From contig OY970061.1 in NCBI GenBank assembly GCA_963705255.1, positions 800,001 to 864,000 on the forward strand: 64,000 nt of DNA. The letters are read 5' to 3'. The position numbers were made by a program, and so were the translations under genes. This document shows positions 30,726 to 44,197 of the stretch, piece after piece. The DNA is from an uncultured Methanoregulaceae archaeon (lineage in GTDB: Archaea; Halobacteriota; Methanomicrobia; Methanomicrobiales; Methanospirillaceae). The first letter of the stretch is position 1; every line of letters begins with the position of its first letter. A model generated the notes under the pieces. It was given only the letters and a program-made list of their open reading frames with translations. It was not told where the DNA came from and did no database searches.

Positions 30726-31650
30726 ATGCTAATCATGGATTGGGAGGGAACGGGGCGCGGATTGGGGAGATCGGATTTTGCAAAAATGGGAGGGGGCCGG
30801 GGTTTCTCTGCTGCAAACCTGAAGAATTTCCGGCAGTTTTACCTGGTTTTCCATAAAGGGTTCCGCGAAGGGGAAATTCCCGGAGAGGAGATCTGCTACA
30901 CAGTGTGTAGCGAATTGAGCTGGTCGCATTACCGCCACCTGATGCGGGTGGAGGACCCGGATGCCCGCGGGTACTATATCCGGGAGACCGTCAGCCAGAA
31001 CTGGACCGTCAGGACACTCGAACGCCAGATCGATTCCCTGTCCTACGAACGGCTGCTCGCGAGCCGGGCGGGGGAAACTGCCGGCCGGAAAAAGCCGGAG
31101 CGATCCAGGTCCTCCCCCCAGCAGCCGGAAGAATTTATCCGGGACCCCTACGTGCTCGAGTTTCTGGATATCCCTGCTTCAGCCGGCTTTTTCGAGCGGG
31201 ACCTTGAGCAGGCACTGATCGACAAACTCCGGCAGTTCCTCCTCGAGCTGGGAAAAGGGTTCTCCTTTGTCGGACGCCAGTACCGGATCAGCACGGAGAC
31301 CTCCGAGTTCTTCATCGATCTCGTATTTTACCACTATATCCTGAAGTGTTTCGTGCTCATTGACCTGAAGACCGGCAGGCTGACGCACCAGGACATCGGG
31401 CAGATGGACATGTATGTGCGGTTGTTCGAAGACCGGATGAAAACAGAAGGAGACGGTCCCACGATCGGGATCATCCTCTGCACGGAGAAGGACGAGACGG
31501 TTGTCCGGTATTCGGTGCTGCACGAGAGACCGCCAGCTCTTTGCATCGCGGTATAAACTCTACCTGCCGAGCGAACGGGAACTGGCCGACGAGATCGAGC
31601 GGGAGAAGGAGATTATGCGGCGGCCAGCCCTGGACCAGCCGGGGACGTGA
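30726..31650 (+). pseudogene. YhcG/DUF1016 PD-(D/E)xK nuclease family, N-terminus degraded and frameshift near 31527
   Basis: LSWSHY, IRDPYVLEFL, LELGKGFSFVGRQ, IDLKTG.L.HQDIGQMDMY. Confidence 0.85.
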
Positions 31651-33155: not shown

Positions 33156-33731
33156 ATGAGAACCTGGGTAAAAATAGGATTATTCCTAAGCGCGTATTTT
33201 CCCTTGTTTCTTATTTTAGCCGTAAAAAATTGGTTTAATATCTATGCTATGGCGCTATGCATCGCCGCCGCGATTTATTCCATATCTGTTTGGTGGTTGC
33301 TTCTATACCTAGTACGGAGAAATACATTTGATATATATAAAGTTGTTAAAATAGAGGATAAAACAAAAGATACCTTGTCTTATCTCATACCGTATATTAT
33401 TTCATTTATGGGGATTGACTTCACACAATGGAAAGATCTGGTTGCTCTGGCGATTTTATTGGTTATTTTGTTTGTGGTATATATCAATTCAGATCTTTTG
33501 TATGTAAATCCCTTACTTTCATTTTTTAATTATAGATTCTATTCAGCAGAAGTAACAAAATTGTCGTATATAGGAAATCCAATACGTAACTTTACAATTA
33601 TTACACAAAATAATATAAAAGTAGATAACACTATCTATGTTTGGGATGTTTGGGAAAACGTAGTCTTTGAGCGTGAATTGGATGAAAGTGATATTACAGG
33701 GTCTGGAAGGGGTCTGACAAGAAACTTGTAA
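33156..33731 (+). CDS. kwaA: Kiwa anti-phage membrane protein KwaA-like
   Basis: LFLSAYFPLFLIL, LSYLIPYIISF, YINSDLLYVNPLL..FNYRFY; adjacent to kwaB-like gene. Confidence 0.75.
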   Translation: MRTWVKIGLFLSAYFPLFLILAVKNWFNIYAMALCIAAAIYSISVWWLLLYLVRRNTFDIYKVVKIEDKTKDTLSYLIPYIISFMGIDFTQWKDLVALAILLVILFVVYINSDLLYVNPLLSFFNYRFYSAEVTKLSYIGNPIRNFTIITQNNIKVDNTIYVWDVWENVVFERELDESDITGSGRGLTRNL

Positions 33732-34666
33732 AACTCTTTTTTATCAAAAAAATTCACAATAGGAAGGAAAACACAGTATCGTATGATTTTCTAAAATCTA
33801 TAATTAGTTTAGAGATCGGAGATGATTTATTAGTCAACGCTATTAATCAAATTTCCAAGAAGATAGGAAAATTCGAAGTACAAAATTATAATATCCTTCC
33901 TGCATCAGACGAAAAAATTATCGAGACGTTGCCACTTAAAGAAGTTCCACATCTTTTAGAATTTGTTGATGCCCTCTCAAATAAAGATTTGAAGATGATT
34001 ACCGATGTTGATTTTTCAAAAACAACCGGATATATTGTTAGAATTGAGAACAAGAGTAATACAATATATCTTTTTAAAAGACATACATCGAACGAATTAC
34101 TCGACAAAGGGAAATCATCATTAGTTTGGGGAAAAGAGGGTAGTTTTAGTCGAATTGAAGATAATATTATTACAATTGCAAAAACATATGACGCTGCACT
34201 TTTAGTGCCCACTCCCAAAACAAAAGATAATTTCACAACAGAAGAGAAATTAGAGTTCGAATCATCTCTTGTGTATATTTTTGAACATTCTCAATTTGAA
34301 TATCTATTTGGATTTAAAGAATATTTTTCTTCAGAAATTACAGCTAATAAAATGTATCTTGAAGAATCAAAACTGGTGGAGTCTGAAGAGACACTTATCC
34401 AATGTTGCGGTGATGATGCCAGAAGAATAAGAAAATTGGCGCGTATTTTGAAAAACAAAGGATTACACTTACTCAAATTAGAGAGAATTCAAAGCGTAAT
34501 ATCAGAATGGGGTTTACCCGTTGAATTTTCAAAAGATAATAAAATGGTTGTCACTCAGGAAAATATAGGACAGATCCTCCATCTTCTTGATGACGACTTT
34601 TCAAAATCCGAAATTACCGATAAACTATACAAAATGTACTCAAAACAAGAATATGCTCAAAAATAA
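33682..34666 (+). CDS. kwaB: Kiwa anti-phage protein KwaB-like (DUF4868), probable +1 G near 33710
   Basis: FEYLFGF, RKLARI, ILHLLDDDFSKSEIT; open frame extends upstream of 33929 and joins ATG 33682 if one G is removed. Confidence 0.75.
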
Positions 34667-34672
34667 ATTTTA

Positions 34673-34777
34673 TTAGACCGTAGATTTTTCCTTCATAATC
34701 TGCATCGGAGTTTTGTACCCGAGTTTCTGGATCTCGCGCTCGTTGTTGAACCACTGCCGGAACTCCTCAAGGTTGTC
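34673..34777 (-). mobile_element. C-terminal remnant of IS3/IS481-like transposase
   Basis: DNLEEFRQWFNNEREIQKLGYKTPMQI resembles the integrase-core end motif; GC-richer than flanks. Confidence 0.55.
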
Positions 34778-35070
34778 CTTAAGTGTGGTGTTAAATGACA
34801 TCGTATACCTTTTGTGATTCAGCGGTTCTGTTGCGTTGTCGGGATTTTTCCTTTTTAATACCCCACTATTGATGGAGGGACTTTTGAAAAGAGATGATAA
34901 GTTGTGGGGTCTTTAAATTGAATAATTGAATGCTTTCGGCGTTTAGTCAAACTAAAAAAAATAGGAACAATTCTTTTTTTTTTAATTTTTTGTATGCCCA
35001 GTAAGGTTGCTAGTGCAATCTCCATGTGAAATAGGAGGGGTTATTTCCCTCCCACGAGAGGTATACCTCT

Positions 35071-35223
35071 CTAACGAGATAGTCTCTGGCAATTAGTCGT
35101 GAAGAGACTACCACCAATATTGTCGTGGTACCATTCTTCTACTAGGGATTTCCCTATTGAGGCAAATACATATGATGCCCCGAGAAGAATTATTGCCAGA
35201 ACTATCTTCTGATCGTCATCCAT
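35071..35223 (-). CDS. 50-aa single-TM peptide (type I toxin-like candidate)
   Basis: MDDDQKIVLAIILLGASYVFASIGKSLVEEWYHDNIGGSLFTTNCQRLSR*, strong AGGAGGTG Shine-Dalgarno. Confidence 0.65.
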   Translation of the reverse strand: MDDDQKIVLAIILLGASYVFASIGKSLVEEWYHDNIGGSLFTTNCQRLSR

Positions 35224-35430
35224 GGCGATTAACACCTCCTTAATGGATTTCGTTCGTCTATCTAAACAGCAATCCTTTTCTCAGTTGAAGTAGAAGAGAT
35301 ATACATAACTCTACTACTTTGTTAGCACCGGATGGATTGCAACCTTAATCCGGAGCGATCCCTTGTTCCGCCGCGAGTTCGCATCTCTACGACAGAACAA
35401 CCTAAGCTTTCTGTTTTTCGAATATTTATA
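35224..35430 (-). promoter_or_regulatory. TATA box plus structured 5' leader of small peptide gene
   Basis: TATAAATA at 35430-35423; 12-bp stem with three G-U pairs at 35400-35363; further hairpins. Confidence 0.55.
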
Positions 35431-35609
35431 GTAGCTAAGTTGTGACTAAAAAATACGTGTCGTACGTACGCCAAATCACCACAGGCGCGCATATAAGGCG
35501 TATTTAGAACAATTTATGTTTGTTTATTTTTTTTATACTTCTCTTGCTACTTCTTCCAATAATAGGATCTTCACTTTTTTCCCAATCCATTTCTTCGGCA
35601 AGAACACTC

Positions 35610-36089
35610 TTAATAACATATCAATGGGATTATCAAAAATCCAAAAATTAACCCGATTAACCAGCCAATTGCCCCGAAAGAAGGAATATTTTGCATTATC
35701 GGCTTTATACTACCACCGGTAAAATATCTTGGATAAAATTCTTTATTCTCTGGGTTGGTACGAAAATCATTATCAATTTTAAGTTCATTCTCCAAATTTA
35801 CAATTAATTTATCATAAAATCTCTGATATGAGAAGATTCGTTTTACAATAATATACCAGATTATTGATAAGATTACACCAAATAATGGAACGATTGTCCA
35901 TTTGATTTGAGTGAGAAAACAATCATTGCTTTGAAAAAGGGCAATTAATAATATAGCATTAGCTGCCCAAAATGCACTAAATACCATCCAAAATAAATTA
36001 TCATAATGCATTTTCATATTATAATAAATTTTCAATAGCTCAAAAAAATCTTGTAGATTGCCTTGTTGATTATTTATCTCCGTATCCAT
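35610..36089 (-). CDS. Three-TM hypothetical membrane protein
   Basis: 159-aa AT-rich ORF; AGAG SD-like upstream. Confidence 0.7.
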   Translation of the reverse strand: MDTEINNQQGNLQDFFELLKIYYNMKMHYDNLFWMVFSAFWAANAILLIALFQSNDCFLTQIKWTIVPLFGVILSIIWYIIVKRIFSYQRFYDKLIVNLENELKIDNDFRTNPENKEFYPRYFTGGSIKPIMQNIPSFGAIGWLIGLIFGFLIIPLICY

Positions 36090-36110
36090 AAACCATCTCT
36101 TCTCTAAATA

Positions 36111-36350
36111 TCATCTTTCTTTATCATTTTCAACCGGATCCAAACGAAGAATTTTCACGCGTTCGAAGTGAGTTGTTACATCGGCGATATCTGCTCCGTC
36201 TTCCTCTCCTATTTGATAATCACGATTTAATTGAGATATTGTTTCTTGCGCTTGTCTTTGATTTAGCTCTAACTTTTGAATGAGAATGGTTCGTTGTTCC
36301 ACTGGTAAATTCAGAGGATTGTAAGTGAATGGGAATAGGCGGCAATCCAT
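36111..36350 (-). CDS. Small hypothetical protein
   Basis: 79-aa ORF co-oriented with neighbours. Confidence 0.5.
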   Translation of the reverse strand: MDCRLFPFTYNPLNLPVEQRTILIQKLELNQRQAQETISQLNRDYQIGEEDGADIADVTTHFERVKILRLDPVENDKER

Positions 36351-36393
36351 AATTTATCGCTGAATATATCCAGCCGTATAGAATTAACCTTTC

Positions 36394-37077
36394 CTAGATC
36401 GTCGCTTCTCTCTTCCTTTTTAAATGCCAATCGATCCAACTAATTCTTAATTTCTTTTTATTATCAAGCTTGAACTGAGTATTTTTCTTAAATTCATCGT
36501 CAATCTTATTATATTCTAATTCAATTGAATCCCATCTTAGATTGATTTTATCAACGGTTTCCTTAAAAAGACTATTAAATGTTATACTATCGCTGTTAGA
36601 GTCACCCTCTTCAAGAAGTTTAGTACATTTTTGAACATGCTCGTTACTAATAGATCTCATCTCCTCTTCGAGTGATTGTGTTTTTGCACAGAAATTTTTA
36701 CAATTATGATAAAATATCTTCAAATTATAATCTAAATCATGATTTAGATTTAGATTCATTCCAGAACTCATAAAATTATTATAAGAATCAAATTTAAAAA
36801 AATTATATGGATAACCGCCATATCCGGTGGAAAGCTCATTGTTGTCAATCCATTCAAATATCCTTGTGGCAACCCACACTGCTTTTACTTTTTTCACACG
36901 TTTAATGAAATTTGGTAATTTCTTTCGGTTATGTTCAATTTCCACAAACAATGACTCAATAGCATCATTATATTTTAGTCTCTTATCCTCGATATGTGTA
37001 TATTTTATGGTTAAAATAGCAGTCAATAACCCAGTAGCAATCCCTAAAAAGGTAGTTGTTATATCATCAAGAACCAT
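36394..37077 (-). CDS. Hypothetical protein with N-terminal TM
   Basis: 227-aa AT-rich ORF. Confidence 0.65.
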   Translation of the reverse strand: MVLDDITTTFLGIATGLLTAILTIKYTHIEDKRLKYNDAIESLFVEIEHNRKKLPNFIKRVKKVKAVWVATRIFEWIDNNELSTGYGGYPYNFFKFDSYNNFMSSGMNLNLNHDLDYNLKIFYHNCKNFCAKTQSLEEEMRSISNEHVQKCTKLLEEGDSNSDSITFNSLFKETVDKINLRWDSIELEYNKIDDEFKKNTQFKLDNKKKLRISWIDWHLKRKREATI

Positions 37078-38912: not shown

Positions 38913-40040
38913 ATGGGAGATATTGAGTACACTAAAGATTATGAAGGTATAGAAGATGAAGAAAGAGATGACATACCAATTGATTTTTGGGAGAGAAAAC
39001 AGCTTGAGTTAGTAACTAGTGTGGTAGATTACAATCTTGCGGGTCTTGCAGATTTAGTTAAAAAAAATAGTATTGATCGTATTGATCTCTCTCCAAAACA
39101 CCAAAGACGGTTACGATGGGATGATAAGCGACAGTCAAAACTTATTGAATCATTCTTAATGAATGTACCTGTTCCCCCAATTTTTCTCAATGAAGATTCA
39201 TACGGAAAATATTCAGTGATAGATGGAAAACAAAGACTTCTCACAATCTCAAAATTCTTTGAAAATGAGCTTGTTTTAACCGGGTTAAAAGTTTTTCAGG
39301 ATGTTAATGGAAAAACATTTTCTATACTTCCCACACGACTTCAAACGGTTCTAAGAACTCGTGTTACATTACGTTCAATAATTCTTTTGCGTCAATCCGA
39401 TCCAAAGATAAAATATGAAGTTTTTGAGCGACTGAATACAGGAGGAGTTAAACTAAATGCTCAAGAATTACGGAATAGTGTCTATCATGGGAAATTGAAT
39501 GATATGATATTAGAAATTTCAGAAAATAAAAAATTCCATCGTCTTTTAGGTATAAAAAACAAAGACCATTCTGCACTTTATCAAGAAATGAGAGATGCTG
39601 AATTAGTCTTGAGATATTTTACATATCGGAATAATTTAGACAGTTTTTCAAGTAAAATGCGACTAACGATGGATATATTTATGGAGCAGAATGTTAATCC
39701 TTCGGGAGAAGCATTAACAGAAATGAGAGAAGATTTTTTGAAAAACCTCGATATTGTTGAAGCTTGTTTTGGAGAATATGCATTTCAACGTTGGCAACCG
39801 GAATTGAAACGGTGGCGTAGATCGTTTTTAGCTTCTGCATATGACGCGCAGATGTTTGCTTGCAGAGAATTCTCTCTGGAAGATGTAAAAACAAAACGCA
39901 CTGAAATACTGAGTGGAGTGAAAAAGCTTTTCACAAATAAAGAGTTTAGGACAGCGATTGACGCTGCTACAAATACTCCCAGTTTCTTTAAAACAAGAAT
40001 TGATCTCATGAGAGAAATGATCGAAAATGTAATCCATTAA
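38913..40040 (+). CDS. DUF262 (GmrSD/ParB-like) domain protein
   Basis: QRRLRW, LIES..MNVPVPPI, VIDGKQRL, FERLNTGG..L..QELRN. Confidence 0.9.
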   Translation: MGDIEYTKDYEGIEDEERDDIPIDFWERKQLELVTSVVDYNLAGLADLVKKNSIDRIDLSPKHQRRLRWDDKRQSKLIESFLMNVPVPPIFLNEDSYGKYSVIDGKQRLLTISKFFENELVLTGLKVFQDVNGKTFSILPTRLQTVLRTRVTLRSIILLRQSDPKIKYEVFERLNTGGVKLNAQELRNSVYHGKLNDMILEISENKKFHRLLGIKNKDHSALYQEMRDAELVLRYFTYRNNLDSFSSKMRLTMDIFMEQNVNPSGEALTEMREDFLKNLDIVEACFGEYAFQRWQPELKRWRRSFLASAYDAQMFACREFSLEDVKTKRTEILSGVKKLFTNKEFRTAIDAATNTPSFFKTRIDLMREMIENVIH

Positions 40041-40050
40041 TAGGATAATT

Positions 40051-40761
40051 ATGGCAAAACCTTCGAAAGCCCTTATCGATTTTCAAAATTCTCTAAAGAT
40101 GGCAGAGGAACTGCAAATACGCGAAAGAAAATCTAATAAAAATGAGATTCCTCAGCCACAAGATGAAAATTTTGTTTATGGATTGCGCGGAGGTTCGATC
40201 GTTTTAATGGTGGGGGCATTTGAAAATTTTTTAGAGGATTTAGTTGAAGAAAAGTTGGATTATCTGAATCAACACCAAAACTATCGCCCTGATAAATTAC
40301 CTACGGATTTGATATATTATAATTGTAAATTAACATTCGAAAAATCAAAAGAGAAAACAAATGATTATCCTAATAATTTGGACAAAATTCCAATTTACAA
40401 AAAAGCAGCCTCTTTAATAAATGATGAAAAAATTGATCCGAAATTATTCCGTTTGTTGGCTGATAGTAATCCGAATCCCAAAAAAGTGAAATATTTATTC
40501 GTAAGCGTGGGTATTCCTGATATCTTTAAAACTATTAAACCAAAATTCGATAAAAAATGGAATAGAGGCAATCCAAGAACAGGGATTGATATTTCCCAAG
40601 AACTTGGAACACTTGTAGAACGCCGCCATGAAGTGGCGCATAAGGCCTATGTGATGGGATTTAGTCGAGATGATCTAAAAAGGTATATCAGATTTCTTCG
40701 GGTATTAGCTCCTGTACTAGACCAAGAGTTAAACTCACATATTCAAAAGATGGTGAAATAA
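40051..40761 (+). CDS. HEPN-domain putative RNase
   Basis: AFENFLED and RHEVAH (Rx4H) motif; directly after DUF262 gene. Confidence 0.75.
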   Translation: MAKPSKALIDFQNSLKMAEELQIRERKSNKNEIPQPQDENFVYGLRGGSIVLMVGAFENFLEDLVEEKLDYLNQHQNYRPDKLPTDLIYYNCKLTFEKSKEKTNDYPNNLDKIPIYKKAASLINDEKIDPKLFRLLADSNPNPKKVKYLFVSVGIPDIFKTIKPKFDKKWNRGNPRTGIDISQELGTLVERRHEVAHKAYVMGFSRDDLKRYIRFLRVLAPVLDQELNSHIQKMVK

Positions 40762-40807
40762 TTTTCACACTTCTTACGGAAAATTTACTTATTCAAAGAC
40801 GAAAACA

Positions 40808-41800
40808 GTGACTATGAGCAAAGCAGAATCTGATTTTAGTTTAATCGACACGACACAAACCAGGTTCTGTGACGGAGATATAGTAGTCCTTCGCACCAAG
40901 GAAGCATCCTTGGAAAAAAAGTTCGAAGCAAAAGTCAATGCTTGGAATCGTAGACCCGAAATTCTGAATACGGTCCATGAATTTTTCGAAGGGGATGCAA
41001 GGCTTATGGAAGGACTCGATTCTAACAAAAAAATTCACTTGGTTGTGACATCTCCGCCTTACTGGAACCTTAAAAAATATAGCGATAGCGGGGACGGTCT
41101 CCAACTAGGCCACATCGAATCTCGCGAGGAATTTCTTCACGAGCTTGGTAAAGTGTGGAAAAATTGTTTTGATCGACTTGTTCCGGGGGGACGAATGTGC
41201 GTCGTAGTTGGAGATGTATGCCGCTCACGCAAAAAGCATGGACGACACCTTGTTGATCCTCTGCACGCATACATTCAGGTCCAATGTCAAGAGATAGGAT
41301 TTGATCCACTTTCCCCAATAATCTGGAATAAAATTTCAAATGTGGTCACAGAAATGGAAGGAAATGGATCAACATTTCTCGGTAAACCATACGAGCCAAA
41401 TGGAATCGTAAAAAATGATATAGAATTTATTTTGCTTTTCCGGAAACCGGGCGGCTATCGTCATCCATCGCAGGATCAAAGGGATCTGAGTATGATTGAC
41501 CGGGAAGATCACGAGAAATGGTTCCAGCAGATCTGGACTGATATTCCGGGAGAGATCCAGAGGGCGCACCCGGCACCATTTCCTGTAGAGGTAGCCCGGA
41601 GATTGATCGGCATGTTCTCTTTTGTCGGGGATGTCGTTCTCGATCCTTTTGCCGGGACCGGGAATACAATCCAGGTCGCGATTAAAATGTACCGGAATTC
41701 AATCGGCATCGAATTAGAACCATCATACATGAGATATGCAGAAAAGCGCCTCAACGAAACACATACTCCGGTAATATTCCACTATAACGAAAGCAGGTAA
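40808..41800 (+). CDS. Beta-class N4-C/N6-A DNA methyltransferase
   Basis: TSPPY catalytic motif before DPFAGTG SAM motif. Confidence 0.92.
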   Translation: MTMSKAESDFSLIDTTQTRFCDGDIVVLRTKEASLEKKFEAKVNAWNRRPEILNTVHEFFEGDARLMEGLDSNKKIHLVVTSPPYWNLKKYSDSGDGLQLGHIESREEFLHELGKVWKNCFDRLVPGGRMCVVVGDVCRSRKKHGRHLVDPLHAYIQVQCQEIGFDPLSPIIWNKISNVVTEMEGNGSTFLGKPYEPNGIVKNDIEFILLFRKPGGYRHPSQDQRDLSMIDREDHEKWFQQIWTDIPGEIQRAHPAPFPVEVARRLIGMFSFVGDVVLDPFAGTGNTIQVAIKMYRNSIGIELEPSYMRYAEKRLNETHTPVIFHYNESR

Positions 41801-41801
41801 C

Positions 41802-42524
41802 ATGGCACCAAATCCCGTCAGCTTTTTACAACACCTTCAAACATTAGGCTATCATCCGAGATCGAATAAACATTCAAACGCTTTGGCAGAGACGATCATG
41901 GGCGACTTACTGAAATATTGCCCGAAGATTGCTTCAAAGGCATCCGCCGGTCAGTTAGTGTACGATCTGAATTTCAACATCACCGTTGGGACGGCAGACT
42001 GGAATATCGATCTGGTTATCGGCAGTGCTCCTCTTGGTATGAAGGCTCCAGAACCGGATATTCCCATTGTGAAAACTCCTCCTGCCCTTGTTCAGATAGC
42101 GATCGAGATCAAGTCTGTAATGACGGAGCATCGCAAGGCGGTGAAGAACCGGAAGAGGGATTTCGATGCACACCACGCCCACGTGCACCAGTATAATCCC
42201 CATTCCATCGCGGGCGGGATTCTTGTCTTGAATGCCTCGCCGAAATTCAAATCGCCGCTTCGGGATACTGAAACGATCCATAAGAACCCGGACAAACTTG
42301 TCGGTCACTGCCTCGACGAGTTCCGTGGCATCTCCTCAAGCGGCGGAACTATCGGGGTCGCGGGTCTCGATGCGAAGGGCGTAATCGTGGTGAATTGCGA
42401 TAATATTGTGCCGCCAAGAACCTGTTACGTCACAACAAAACCGGCGCCTGTTGTCGGCGATCCGATTCACTATGATGCATTTATTCAGAGTATCTGCGAT
42501 CTGTATACGGCCCGGTTTCCTTAA
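41802..42524 (+). CDS. Putative type II restriction endonuclease (PD-(D/E)xK)
   Basis: IDLVIG...IEIKS motif; abuts the MTase. Confidence 0.6.
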   Translation: MAPNPVSFLQHLQTLGYHPRSNKHSNALAETIMGDLLKYCPKIASKASAGQLVYDLNFNITVGTADWNIDLVIGSAPLGMKAPEPDIPIVKTPPALVQIAIEIKSVMTEHRKAVKNRKRDFDAHHAHVHQYNPHSIAGGILVLNASPKFKSPLRDTETIHKNPDKLVGHCLDEFRGISSSGGTIGVAGLDAKGVIVVNCDNIVPPRTCYVTTKPAPVVGDPIHYDAFIQSICDLYTARFP

Positions 42525-42733
42525 TGGGCGAATCTGGATTTTTTACTTATTATCGAGTATAATATCCTTAATCCCATAATTATCAAATCTTTTTTGAAGA
42601 ATGTCACGAGAATTAAAGCAATAATCCCCAAAAGCATCCATGAGACAAGCATAATGTTCAACAACGCCTGAAATCCACCGAAGGCCAAAATAAGACCAAC
42701 GTAGAAAAGAAGTTGTTTTAAATCTGAGTTCAT
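42521..42733 (-). CDS. Small two-TM membrane protein
   Basis: 70-aa hydrophobic ORF; GAGGTG upstream. Confidence 0.6.
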   Translation of the reverse strand: MNSDLKQLLFYVGLILAFGGFQALLNIMLVSWMLLGIIALILVTFFKKDLIIMGLRILYSIISKKSRFAH

Positions 42734-43132
42734 AGGAGATCACCTCAATCAATTTTTTTCCAGTCACAACTTTTTTTATCGAGAGGGCACGGTGGCAATC
42801 TGTCCGTATCCTGATCGAGATAGATAATTTCTCCTGTTTCAACCGATTCATAGTGTCCTTTTCCCGGTTTTGTTCCGCACTTGAATGACATTTATTTCCA
42901 CCTTGAGGTCCCAGTGAGAACCTCAGATAATTATCCTATTATGCAGCGAACAAAAGAGTATCAGCAAGTGTTGTGAAAGTGTTACAGTTAGATATTTTTT
43001 ATTTTAGCGAGAATTCTAAATTCGAATGTATTCAGTTAAAACCAGATGTTAAAAATATTGGAAATTCTGACGTGAAAAAACGTCATGAGAATATTGAAGT
43101 AGTTCTCTTATCCATATTAAATAATAAATTCT

Positions 43133-44197
43133 ATGATTTTTATGACGGACATTCCAGAATTAATTGAGGTAATCAATGAAATGGATGCCGATGCTGATAC
43201 AATAGAAAATGAGATGAGCCATCTCTTTTCATCATTAGCCATTGTAGAAAAACCTAATCTTTCTGAAAAAAATGATGAAAGTATTCAAAAAATTCTTTTT
43301 CGTCCATCACTACCCACATATGTCCCTACTCGCGATAAATGGGAGGAACCGAATAAAGAACTATCAGAATATCATCGATATATAATCAAACACTATGAAA
43401 AATGGTATAATCAGGCATTATTCCTTATTCGCGAATATAACAAATCTTCAGAAGTAGAATTCATTGAATTGCATAACGGTAAAAGAGAAAGTTATACCGG
43501 TCCAGACACTTACCGAGACTCACCAGTTCCGGTAACAAAAATGATTACGGTGTATTATGGAATTTCTGAATTATTACAATTTAATGAAAAAATCAAAGGT
43601 ACTTATGAACCTCAAAAATTAATCAAGACTACTACAAATTTATTTTCAAAACAACGCGCATCACTTCTTGCATTACCGGATATTGTAAAAATGTCAAAGA
43701 AATCAAATTCTGTGATTCCCAATTCAATGCCCAATAAGAAGGAAGTATTCATTGTTCATGGCCATGATGAAGAATTAAAACAATCAGTCGCTAGATTTAT
43801 TGAAAAAATTGATTTGAAACCGATAATTTTACATGAACAACCAAATCAAAACAGACATTTGCTCCAAAAATTAAAAGATTATAGCGATGTCGGATACGCA
43901 ATCGTCTTGCTTACTCCGGACGATATGGGAATATCTAAACAGGATTTTGATGAAAAAAATATTGTTCTAAATTTTCAATCAAGGGCCCGTCAAAATGTGA
44001 TTTTAGAATTAGGTTTCTTTTTGGGTCTACTGAAAGAACAGCGGATTTGTGCTATCAATAAAGGTGTTAAAGATATTCCGTCAGATTATCACGGAATTAC
44101 ATTTATTGAATATGATAAAGAAGGAGCGTGGAAAATGAAAATCGCAAAAGAATTAGATTCTGTAGGTTATGTAATAGATTTTAAAAATGTTATATAA
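43133..44197 (+). CDS. Protein with C-terminal TIR-like (CAP12/Pycsar-type) domain
   Basis: VFIVHGHD, ILHEQ, AIVLLTPDD, RARQNVILELGFF, PSDYHG. Confidence 0.88.
   Translation: MIFMTDIPELIEVINEMDADADTIENEMSHLFSSLAIVEKPNLSEKNDESIQKILFRPSLPTYVPTRDKWEEPNKELSEYHRYIIKHYEKWYNQALFLIREYNKSSEVEFIELHNGKRESYTGPDTYRDSPVPVTKMITVYYGISELLQFNEKIKGTYEPQKLIKTTTNLFSKQRASLLALPDIVKMSKKSNSVIPNSMPNKKEVFIVHGHDEELKQSVARFIEKIDLKPIILHEQPNQNRHLLQKLKDYSDVGYAIVLLTPDDMGISKQDFDEKNIVLNFQSRARQNVILELGFFLGLLKEQRICAINKGVKDIPSDYHGITFIEYDKEGAWKMKIAKELDSVGYVIDFKNVI

Follow-up and report, generated by a model that had tools for sequence, protein, structure and literature searches.

A small-peptide cassette with a pseudoknotted leader in Methanoregula as a candidate self-locked toxin-type mRNA

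The minus strand of the window, by which we mean the whole 64,000-nt stretch of archaeal DNA analysed here, carries a small gene cassette in which a promoter is followed by a 5' hairpin, a pseudoknotted leader, an ORF for a membrane peptide and a 3' region that folds back onto the translation start in the predicted structure. Our preferred reading, held tentatively and at somewhat under even confidence, is that the cassette encodes a hok/aapA-like self-locked toxin-type mRNA, which would be new for archaea. We favour this reading because the anatomy matches that described for hok and aapA mRNAs, namely a 5' hairpin, a folded leader, a membrane ORF, the order stop codon, hairpin and anti-start segment, and a patchy spread beside mobile and defence genes. 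The elements, their conservation and covariation, and coding selection on the related peptides are direct observations. Eight distinct loci are compared: the window, G025, G131, G028 C21, G028b (contig C42, L051), G117 (L055), M47 (L047) and M49 (L049).

The cassette and its surroundings

An earlier note on this DNA had described the elements of a small-peptide module on the minus strand between 35430 and 34950, and all of them lie where it placed them (Table 1). Read along that strand, they follow in the order TATA box, 5' hairpin, leader of ~180 nt, Shine-Dalgarno (SD) sequence, 50-aa ORF, two hairpins and a run of eight U residues (U8). The 5' hairpin has the base pairs that the note had counted, including the G-U pairs, and in the minimum free energy (MFE) fold it gains a short tip. 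Archaeal promoters keep a usual spacing between TATA box and transcript start, and from this spacing a transcript start near 35402 is predicted. The hydrophobic span of the peptide reaches a Kyte-Doolittle maximum (19-residue window) of 2.0 at residues 7-25. The A-run/U-run hairpin that closes the cassette is likely a terminator, and T7-T8 runs also close the longer, two-gene units of M47, M49, L051 and L055.

The element is single-copy in its own 2.6-Mb genome, in which neither a paralogue nor a trans partner was found; the best match beyond the locus itself, 17 identical nt, falls within a coding region. The cassette lies between the copies of two 9-nt direct repeats, TAAGTTGTG and ACTAAAAAA (34898-34906/35436-35444 and 34951-34959/35445-35453), and these could be the trace of an insertion or duplication, or could be due to chance. 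In addition, words of the form AAGTCCC(G/T)C recur downstream in three loci (~34880 in the window, ~1975-2110 in L002 and ~2060-2110 in L047); they occur in both orientations in G025 and are not enriched genome-wide.

The earlier note had set the module in a defence island, and the neighbouring genes bear this out. Within the window we find a Kiwa pair together with a PDC-S02/YhcG nuclease, an NsnA-like GmrSD protein, a RiboL-PSP HEPN protein, a type II methylase and a PDC-S35 TIR protein. The KwaB ORF of the Kiwa pair matches its profiles only from about position 98-118, and no frame was called in 33732-33928; the N-terminal part of KwaB may have been lost or frameshifted. Transposase genes or fragments adjoin 5/8 loci, and in L051 no terminal inverted repeats were found that enclose both the transposase and the cassette.

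Upstream of the TATA box lies a conserved block in which the word AAATACGCC occurs together with a palindrome, GTACGTAC (35469-35462), and a run of six T residues (35453-35448). The window, G025, M47 and M49 align over this block, G131 does so in part and G028 C21 does not; the block is conserved between loci with different upstream genes. The block may possibly serve as an operator, as a read-through terminator that insulates the cassette, or as both. Further upstream in the window, the gene for an 8xMP-family membrane protein and two ORFs without family lie on the same strand, and these three ORFs of 35610-37077 may form a membrane-based unit within the island.

Table 1. Features of the cassette, its neighbours and its relatives. 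Positions are those of the window unless a locus is named.
Feature	Position	Strand	Basis or remark
TATA box TATAAATA	35430-35423	-	Read from sequence
5'-terminal hairpin	35363..35400	-	12 bp + 3-bp tip, 3 G-U pairs; MFE fold
Leader core, ~110 nt	35255..35360	-	Matches of covariance models R1 and R2
P1 stem	35356-35348 with 35333-35325	-	Common to 8/8 cores
Loop L1, UAAGGUU	35347-35341	-	Invariant AAGG across cores
PK pseudoknot	35340-35334 (GCAAUCC) with 35275-35269 (GGAUUGC)	-	Common to 8/8 cores
P2 hairpin	35319-35288	-	Variable; between P1 and the 3' half of PK
Conserved tail UGUUUAGA	35268-35261	-	After PK in 6/8 cores
SD AGGAGGTG	35240-35233	-	9 nt before the ATG at 35223
50-aa peptide ORF	35071..35223	-	Stop codon included; one hydrophobic span near the N-terminus
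Two post-ORF hairpins	35071-35056 and 35055-35031	-	MFE fold; the second contains the anti-SD-like CCCUCCU
Anti-start (anti-TIR) segment	35012..35029	-	Pairs with 35236-35219; MFE fold
Leader-complementary segment	34996..35010	-	15 bp with leader 35356-35339
A-run/U-run hairpin with U8 (34961-34954)	34950..34987	-	Sequence and MFE fold
Conserved block upstream of TATA box, ~65 nt	35441..35506	-	MAFFT, upstream 330 nt, 6 loci
8xMP-family membrane protein	35610-36089	-	Directly upstream, same strand
Two ORFs without family	36111-36350 and 36394-37077	-	
KwaA and KwaB	33156-33731 and 33929-34666	+	Kiwa defence pair
Further defence genes	30726-31556 and 38913-44197		Named in the text
rve fragment	34673-34801	-	3' of the window element, ~150 nt downstream
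rve-type fragment, G028 C21	L037 3-98		5' of the locus
IS240-type DDE gene	L051 1958-2557	-	Ends ~100 nt upstream of the promoter
Truncated IS240-type copy, G131	L012 1157-1327		77% identical to the L051 gene
IS240-type gene, M49	L049 2546-3013	-	
Second ORF, M47 and M49	L047 1843-2004; L049 downstream ORF		53-aa two-TM protein
Second ORFs, L051 and L055			Cys-containing, ~50 aa
Second ORF, G131	L012 1872-2132		86 aa
Start region and 3' segment, M47			AUGAACCCA with UGGGUUCAU; paired bases begin at AUG
Start region and 3' segment, M49			CGAUGAAUCC with GGAUUCAUCG; from 2 nt upstream, through AUG
Start region and 3' segment, G028b			GAACCCAAC with GUUGGGUUC; paired bases begin 10 nt upstream of AUG
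Start region and 3' segment, G117			UCACAACCA with UGGUUGUGA; paired bases begin 14 nt upstream of AUG

A pseudoknotted leader core common to eight loci

The relatives of the cassette were collected by several routes. A DNA search found the leader part 75% identical in G025 (E 1e-10), with a shorter match in G131, and G028 contig C21 was next picked up by R1, a covariance model built on the 110-nt core. Of 11 metagenome loci with a two-block pattern, three proved to carry the leader core (L047, L049 and L040, the last of which duplicates the G028 locus), and a six-frame search with the L047 peptide led to two more distant loci, G028 contig C42 (L051) and G117 (L055), whose leaders are scored weakly by R1 (23.9 and 15.6 bits). 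A second covariance model (R2), built from all eight cores, matches 6 loci in 5/108 genus genomes at E <= 1e-12. Altogether, nine related loci occupy eight places, with six in 5 of the 108 Methanoregula species genomes and three, including one duplicate, in metagenomes.

Beyond the genus, R2 found no match at E <= 0.01 in 120 genomes that represent 18 further genera of the family, a set of 122 genomes from the order's five other families gave none with R1, and the viral contigs held neither the leader pattern nor relatives of the peptides. Weak R2 matches (E 0.07-1 in eight genomes, including G036) were inspected and judged to be noise. A pattern scan of genome contigs gave 20 loci, of which 18 were attributed to chance; the two real ones are both from Methanoregula. 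As sampled by these searches, the cassette family is small, restricted to Methanoregula and sited next to mobile elements.

The most conserved feature of the cassette, a pseudoknotted leader core, is one that the earlier note had missed. Its consensus pairs the 3' half of the P1 loop, GCAAYCC, with GGRUUGC ~60 nt downstream, such that P1 and PK form an H-type pseudoknot with zero spacer between the stems. The invariant letters that remain unpaired are AAGG in L1 and the tail UGUUUAGA, for which there is no pairing partner. In the alignment of the eight sequences, P1 is 92.9% paired with both sides changed in 6/9 pairs, and PK is 98.2% paired with both sides changed in 3/7 pairs; the alignment was fitted to P1, and PK was absent from the alignment model. 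Overall, 89.3% of cells are paired, versus 30-44% for slid partners, with 11 pairs changed on both sides, and 0/500 shuffles reach the observed covariation score. By this comparison, P1 and PK both covary.

G-U pairs are present in P1, in PK and in all eight 5' hairpins, and therefore the sense RNA is the folded strand. A stable hairpin stands between the TATA box and the core in 8/8 loci (-14 to -21 kcal/mol, 2-6 G-U pairs), and a TATA-like word lies 56-84 nt ahead of the core in 7/8. Depending on the locus, PK and the start codon stand ~13 to ~110 nt apart. Rfam 15 gave no match at gathering score in the window, where 34500-35800 returned chance rows only (E 4 and 4.6), and no match at E <= 0.1 in seven related loci. 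To judge from these searches, the leader core is a new RNA motif outside described families.

Coding selection and fold-back of the 3' region

In 6/8 loci, the leader is followed by an ORF that encodes a TM peptide (41-50 aa) in which a single span is hydrophobic. Five of the peptides (G131, M47, M49, G028b and G117) align as one family, characterized by a polar N-terminus, a hydrophobic span of 20-odd residues and a C-terminal His, with a Kyte-Doolittle 19-residue maximum of 3.2-3.5. In two close pairs, differences at the first, second and third codon positions number 4, 2 and 10, and 5, 3 and 21, and changed codons are synonymous or non-synonymous at 10:5 and 20:6; in addition, the family CDS is better conserved than its flanks. 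Because of this third-position bias, synonymous excess and conservation over the flanks, the family ORF1 is a real gene, and by these measures the five-peptide family is under purifying selection.

A profile of the family finds six proteins at E <= 0.001 among 1.84 billion representatives, all of 40-81 aa, and those that can be traced lie on a small number of metagenome contigs, under uninformative names. Twenty weak profile matches in the order sample (E 5e-4 to 0.05), in open frames of 63-800 aa, were rejected. The earlier note had raised the prospect of homologous peptides and covarying UTRs in archaeal genomes, and Methanoregula does hold covarying leaders and family peptides; for the window peptide itself, no homologue was found in the protein database, 107 other genus genomes, Pfam or PADLOC. 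In alignment, the window peptide is unrelated to the five-peptide family, so that the coding status of the window ORF follows only from its strong SD and its position.

Known protein families likewise offered no match. A word-index protein search gave no candidates for the window or M47 peptide, PADLOC gave no match for the six peptides, and the ESM Atlas gave only sub-threshold rows (0.86) for one family member. In Pfam-A at E <= 10, two of the six peptides had chance-level rows (E 0.22 and 0.53, unrelated families) and four had none; no Hok/Gef-type toxin profile was matched at that threshold, taking the toxin-family content of Pfam-A as is. As far as Rfam for the leader, and Pfam and PADLOC for the peptides, can tell, both lie outside any described family.

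The genes behind the leader vary. In G025 and G028 C21, the same leader precedes soluble, non-membrane ORFs of 85 aa and 78 aa, and no significant fold-back was found at these two loci. The ORF1s of the five peptide loci other than the window are mostly without a clear SD. Five loci have a second ORF behind the anti-start segment, small and with a strong SD, and the segment there stands between two ORFs and not at the 3' end; the window has no such ORF, and its U8 comes directly. These second ORFs differ between loci even where ORF1 is 86% identical, are mutually unrelated, and have no Pfam family in the two cases scanned.

The earlier note had suggested folding the RNA from 35402 to 34950. 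This RNA has an MFE of -156.8, versus -112.9 +/- 5.4 in shuffles (z -8.09), and none of 100 dinucleotide shuffles reaches so low a value. The fold of the window RNA exceeds chance. The plus-strand fold of the same region has a z of -5.84, and among relatives the z values are -5.0 (M47), -4.0 (M49) and -7.1 (G131), which leaves the window with the strongest fold among the loci.

Two complementarities between the 3' region and the leader had been proposed, and as sequence matches both are correct: AACCCCTCCT at 35042-35033 is complementary in 9/10 positions to 35240-35231, and GCAACCTTA at 35010-35002 in 9/9 positions to 35347-35339. They fare differently in the fold. The pairing of the SD with AACCCCUCCU is possible but absent from the MFE fold, in which AACCCCUCCU occupies a local hairpin (35055-35047 with 35039-35031), and it has no counterpart in the relatives. 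The 9/9 pairing, GCAACCUUA with UAAGGUUGC, is used in the MFE fold, where it grows to 15 bp (35356-35339 with 35010-34996) and competes with P1 and PK. This leader pairing belongs to the window alone, although G131 shows a looser analogue; as a family feature it was rejected, being strong for the 3' region of the window only.

In the MFE fold, the start region of the window pairs instead with the segment just downstream of the post-ORF hairpins. Specifically, 35236-35219 pairs with 35029-35012 through 16 bp in four short helices, which include CCAUG/CAUGG and cover the 3' half of the SD and the AUG (GGUGU at 35236-35232 with 35016-35012). Within the ORF, 21 bp join the 5' end (35218-35192) to the 3' end (35093-35072). 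When shuffling is confined to the 35-nt 3' segment, the MFE rises to -149.8 +/- 2.5, a loss of ~7 kcal/mol, and 1/150 shuffles is as low as the native sequence.

A comparable arrangement recurs in the family. Each family ORF1 has behind it a stable, GC-rich hairpin, beyond which lies a segment that is complementary to the start region. In four loci (M47, M49, G028b and G117), the anti-start stems are perfect over 9, 10, 9 and 9 bp and differ in sequence in each, versus mostly 4-7 bp and a maximum of 8 in cross-locus control stems. The four 3' segments begin 52-59 nt past the stop codon, and the window counterpart lies at 42-59 nt. The anti-start helices belong to the MFE folds of M47 and M49. 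In G131, an interrupted 10/12 match found by eye is no better than the cross-locus controls, and the MFE fold pairs the 3' segment with the leader instead of the start region. The fold-back onto the translation start that the earlier note had envisaged thus recurs with different sequences in the relatives, but in the window it runs through 35029-35012 and not through the SD and AACCCCUCCU.

The masking of a translation start by a distant 3' element is in this way found in silico and by comparison only. The note had also anticipated an effect of 3' truncation: removing the 3' part in silico opens the start in the window, where the unpaired probability of the AUG rises from 0.00 to 0.43, and in G028b, but not in M47, M49, G117 or G131. 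Predicted opening in only 2/6 loci is a real weakness of the in silico case.

Readings of the cassette and comparison with known systems

The defining element of a type I toxin-antitoxin system is an RNA antitoxin that pairs with the toxin mRNA. No complementary RNA sequence was found elsewhere in the cassette's own genome, and the search for an antisense promoter, which the earlier note likewise could not locate, gave none that is convincing. TATA-like words opposite the linker that precedes PK were seen by eye in ~5/8 loci, but they are weak, absent at the matching place in the window, and were not retained; antisense T-runs of at least 5 near the sense start occur in 3/6 loci scanned. The upstream block was also considered as a tandem or divergent sRNA antidote and rejected, since its longest stems are no better for cognate than for non-cognate pairs. 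Of the type I-like module that the note had proposed, the TM peptide in a fold-back mRNA and the defence island stand, but no RNA antitoxin was found. By analogy, the cassette would work like a type I toxin mRNA, and it is at most a putative member of the type I systems.

In the self-locked toxin-type reading, the promoter would drive an mRNA of ~450 nt, with predicted ends, that carries the hairpin, the pseudoknotted core, a single-pass peptide of 41-50 aa, the post-ORF hairpin and the anti-start segment. The full-length mRNA would be translationally closed, as hok and aapA mRNAs are, and the start site would become open once the 3' anti-start segment is lost or displaced. One route to this open state could be trimming from the 3' end that halts at the GC-rich hairpin behind the ORF. 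The peptide, once made, would be a toxin-type effector in the membrane, with a possible role in addiction or abortive infection. A bolder form of this proposal, which we regard as doubtful, is that the cassette is the first archaeal type I-like system, with a covarying 5'-3' lock that is unlocked by 3' trimming to the post-ORF hairpin, a leader that docks an antidote, and a cassette that travels with IS elements and defence islands. The postulated antidote of that form would be an antisense RNA that begins in the A/U-rich linker ahead of PK and reads back as far as the T-run located at the sense start, or else some other factor.

The main alternative, which we judge rather unlikely, is that the cassette is a gene for a non-toxic small membrane protein whose translation is kept low or conditional by mRNA structure, with the leader and fold-back acting as a dosage or stability device. 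In its favour, no antitoxin was found, the conserved polar N-terminal motif suggests a specific partner and not plain membrane damage, and most family members have the second, variable small ORF with a strong SD downstream. However, the distribution is patchy (5/108 species genomes), the loci have IS elements and defence genes as neighbours, the peptide is swapped behind the same leader between the window and the family, and the order of stop codon, hairpin and anti-start segment is more in keeping with a selfish element or a defence cassette than with a housekeeping protein.

It is improbable, in our assessment, that the core is instead a portable regulatory pseudoknot, which would have a protein, a small molecule or a trans RNA as its ligand and would control any small gene that follows, with the peptide and the 3' pairing being secondary. 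The core is indeed shared more widely than any other part and stands ahead of ORFs of three unrelated kinds, its H-type geometry comes with the invariant AAGG and the partnerless tail UGUUUAGA, and a conserved palindrome lies upstream of the promoter. Yet the varying distance from PK to the start codon leaves the core without a fixed expression platform, no pathway unites the downstream genes, Rfam gave no match, and the anti-start pairing covaries independently of the core. Pseudoknot riboswitches of the preQ1-II and SAM-II type have a conserved aptamer that masks the SD of genes of one metabolic pathway. The cassette differs from these in that its downstream ORFs are unrelated, without a common pathway, and stand ~13 to 110 nt from PK.

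Finally, that the window ORF is spurious and the element a decayed or non-coding family remnant beside an IS fragment is very improbable: the window peptide is without relatives in the searches made, an rve fragment lies 150 nt downstream and short direct repeats bracket the element, but the strong SD at ideal spacing, the intact 50-codon frame with a TM span, the T8 terminator, the strongest fold of all loci (z -8.1), the 21 bp that join the ORF ends and the pairing of the start at the same relative place as in the family all argue against decay.

Type I systems are described from only three bacterial phyla in a 2025 paper (PMC12390103), and a 2026 preprint reports that no type I system has been found in Archaea. 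In a literature search on type I toxin-antitoxin, archaea and antisense RNA, no archaeal case was among the best matches listed. Within these sources, bacteria alone are known to have type I toxin-antitoxin systems and toxin mRNAs locked by a fold-back. If the self-locked toxin-type reading is true, the cassette would show that fold-back control works with the way archaea transcribe, translate and degrade RNA. It would in addition provide a structured RNA motif that is new, and a small testable system, of which eight natural variants already carry compensatory changes. The peptides of 41-50 aa agree with the small (<60 aa), hydrophobic, membrane-targeted peptides of type I systems.

In the account of hok given in PMC6733600 (citing Gultyaev 1997), a 3' element pairs with the 5' part of the mRNA and keeps it translationally inert until 3' processing activates it, and IS elements lie near chromosomal hok copies (PMC6733600, citing Pedersen and Gerdes 1999). 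The cassette resembles hok/sok of plasmid R1 and Enterobacteria, as portrayed there, in its small membrane peptide, in a highly folded mRNA with 3'-5' pairing and in covariation that supports the folding. It differs in its archaeal host and promoter, in that neither a Sok-like antisense RNA nor a mok-like overlapping frame was seen, and in sequence, with no Pfam match at E <= 10; its leader is a pseudoknot without a hok counterpart, and a second ORF follows the anti-start segment in most loci.

For aapA/IsoA of Helicobacter pylori, PMC6733600 and PMC5416894 describe a 5'-3' interaction that masks the ribosome site and 3' truncation that activates the mRNA. The likeness lies in 5'-3' masking in the full-length mRNA and in upstream structures that possibly act during transcription. 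By those same descriptions, IsoA is a well-defined antisense RNA to the 5' UTR, whereas no such RNA is shown for the cassette, and the cassette family would mask the start codon region or the bases just upstream rather than the SD.

A comparison within the methanogens is provided by Methanosarcina mazei, in which the pairs spRNA23/asRNA93 and spRNA24/asRNA94 were compared to hok/sok by their authors (bioRxiv 10.1101/2025.10.28.685009). In the portion of that preprint on which we draw, the M. mazei pairs have detected antisense RNAs and are not described as fold-back mRNAs, in contrast to the cassette. By description, they nevertheless share with it a methanogen host, small proteins encoded on small RNAs and post-transcriptional control.
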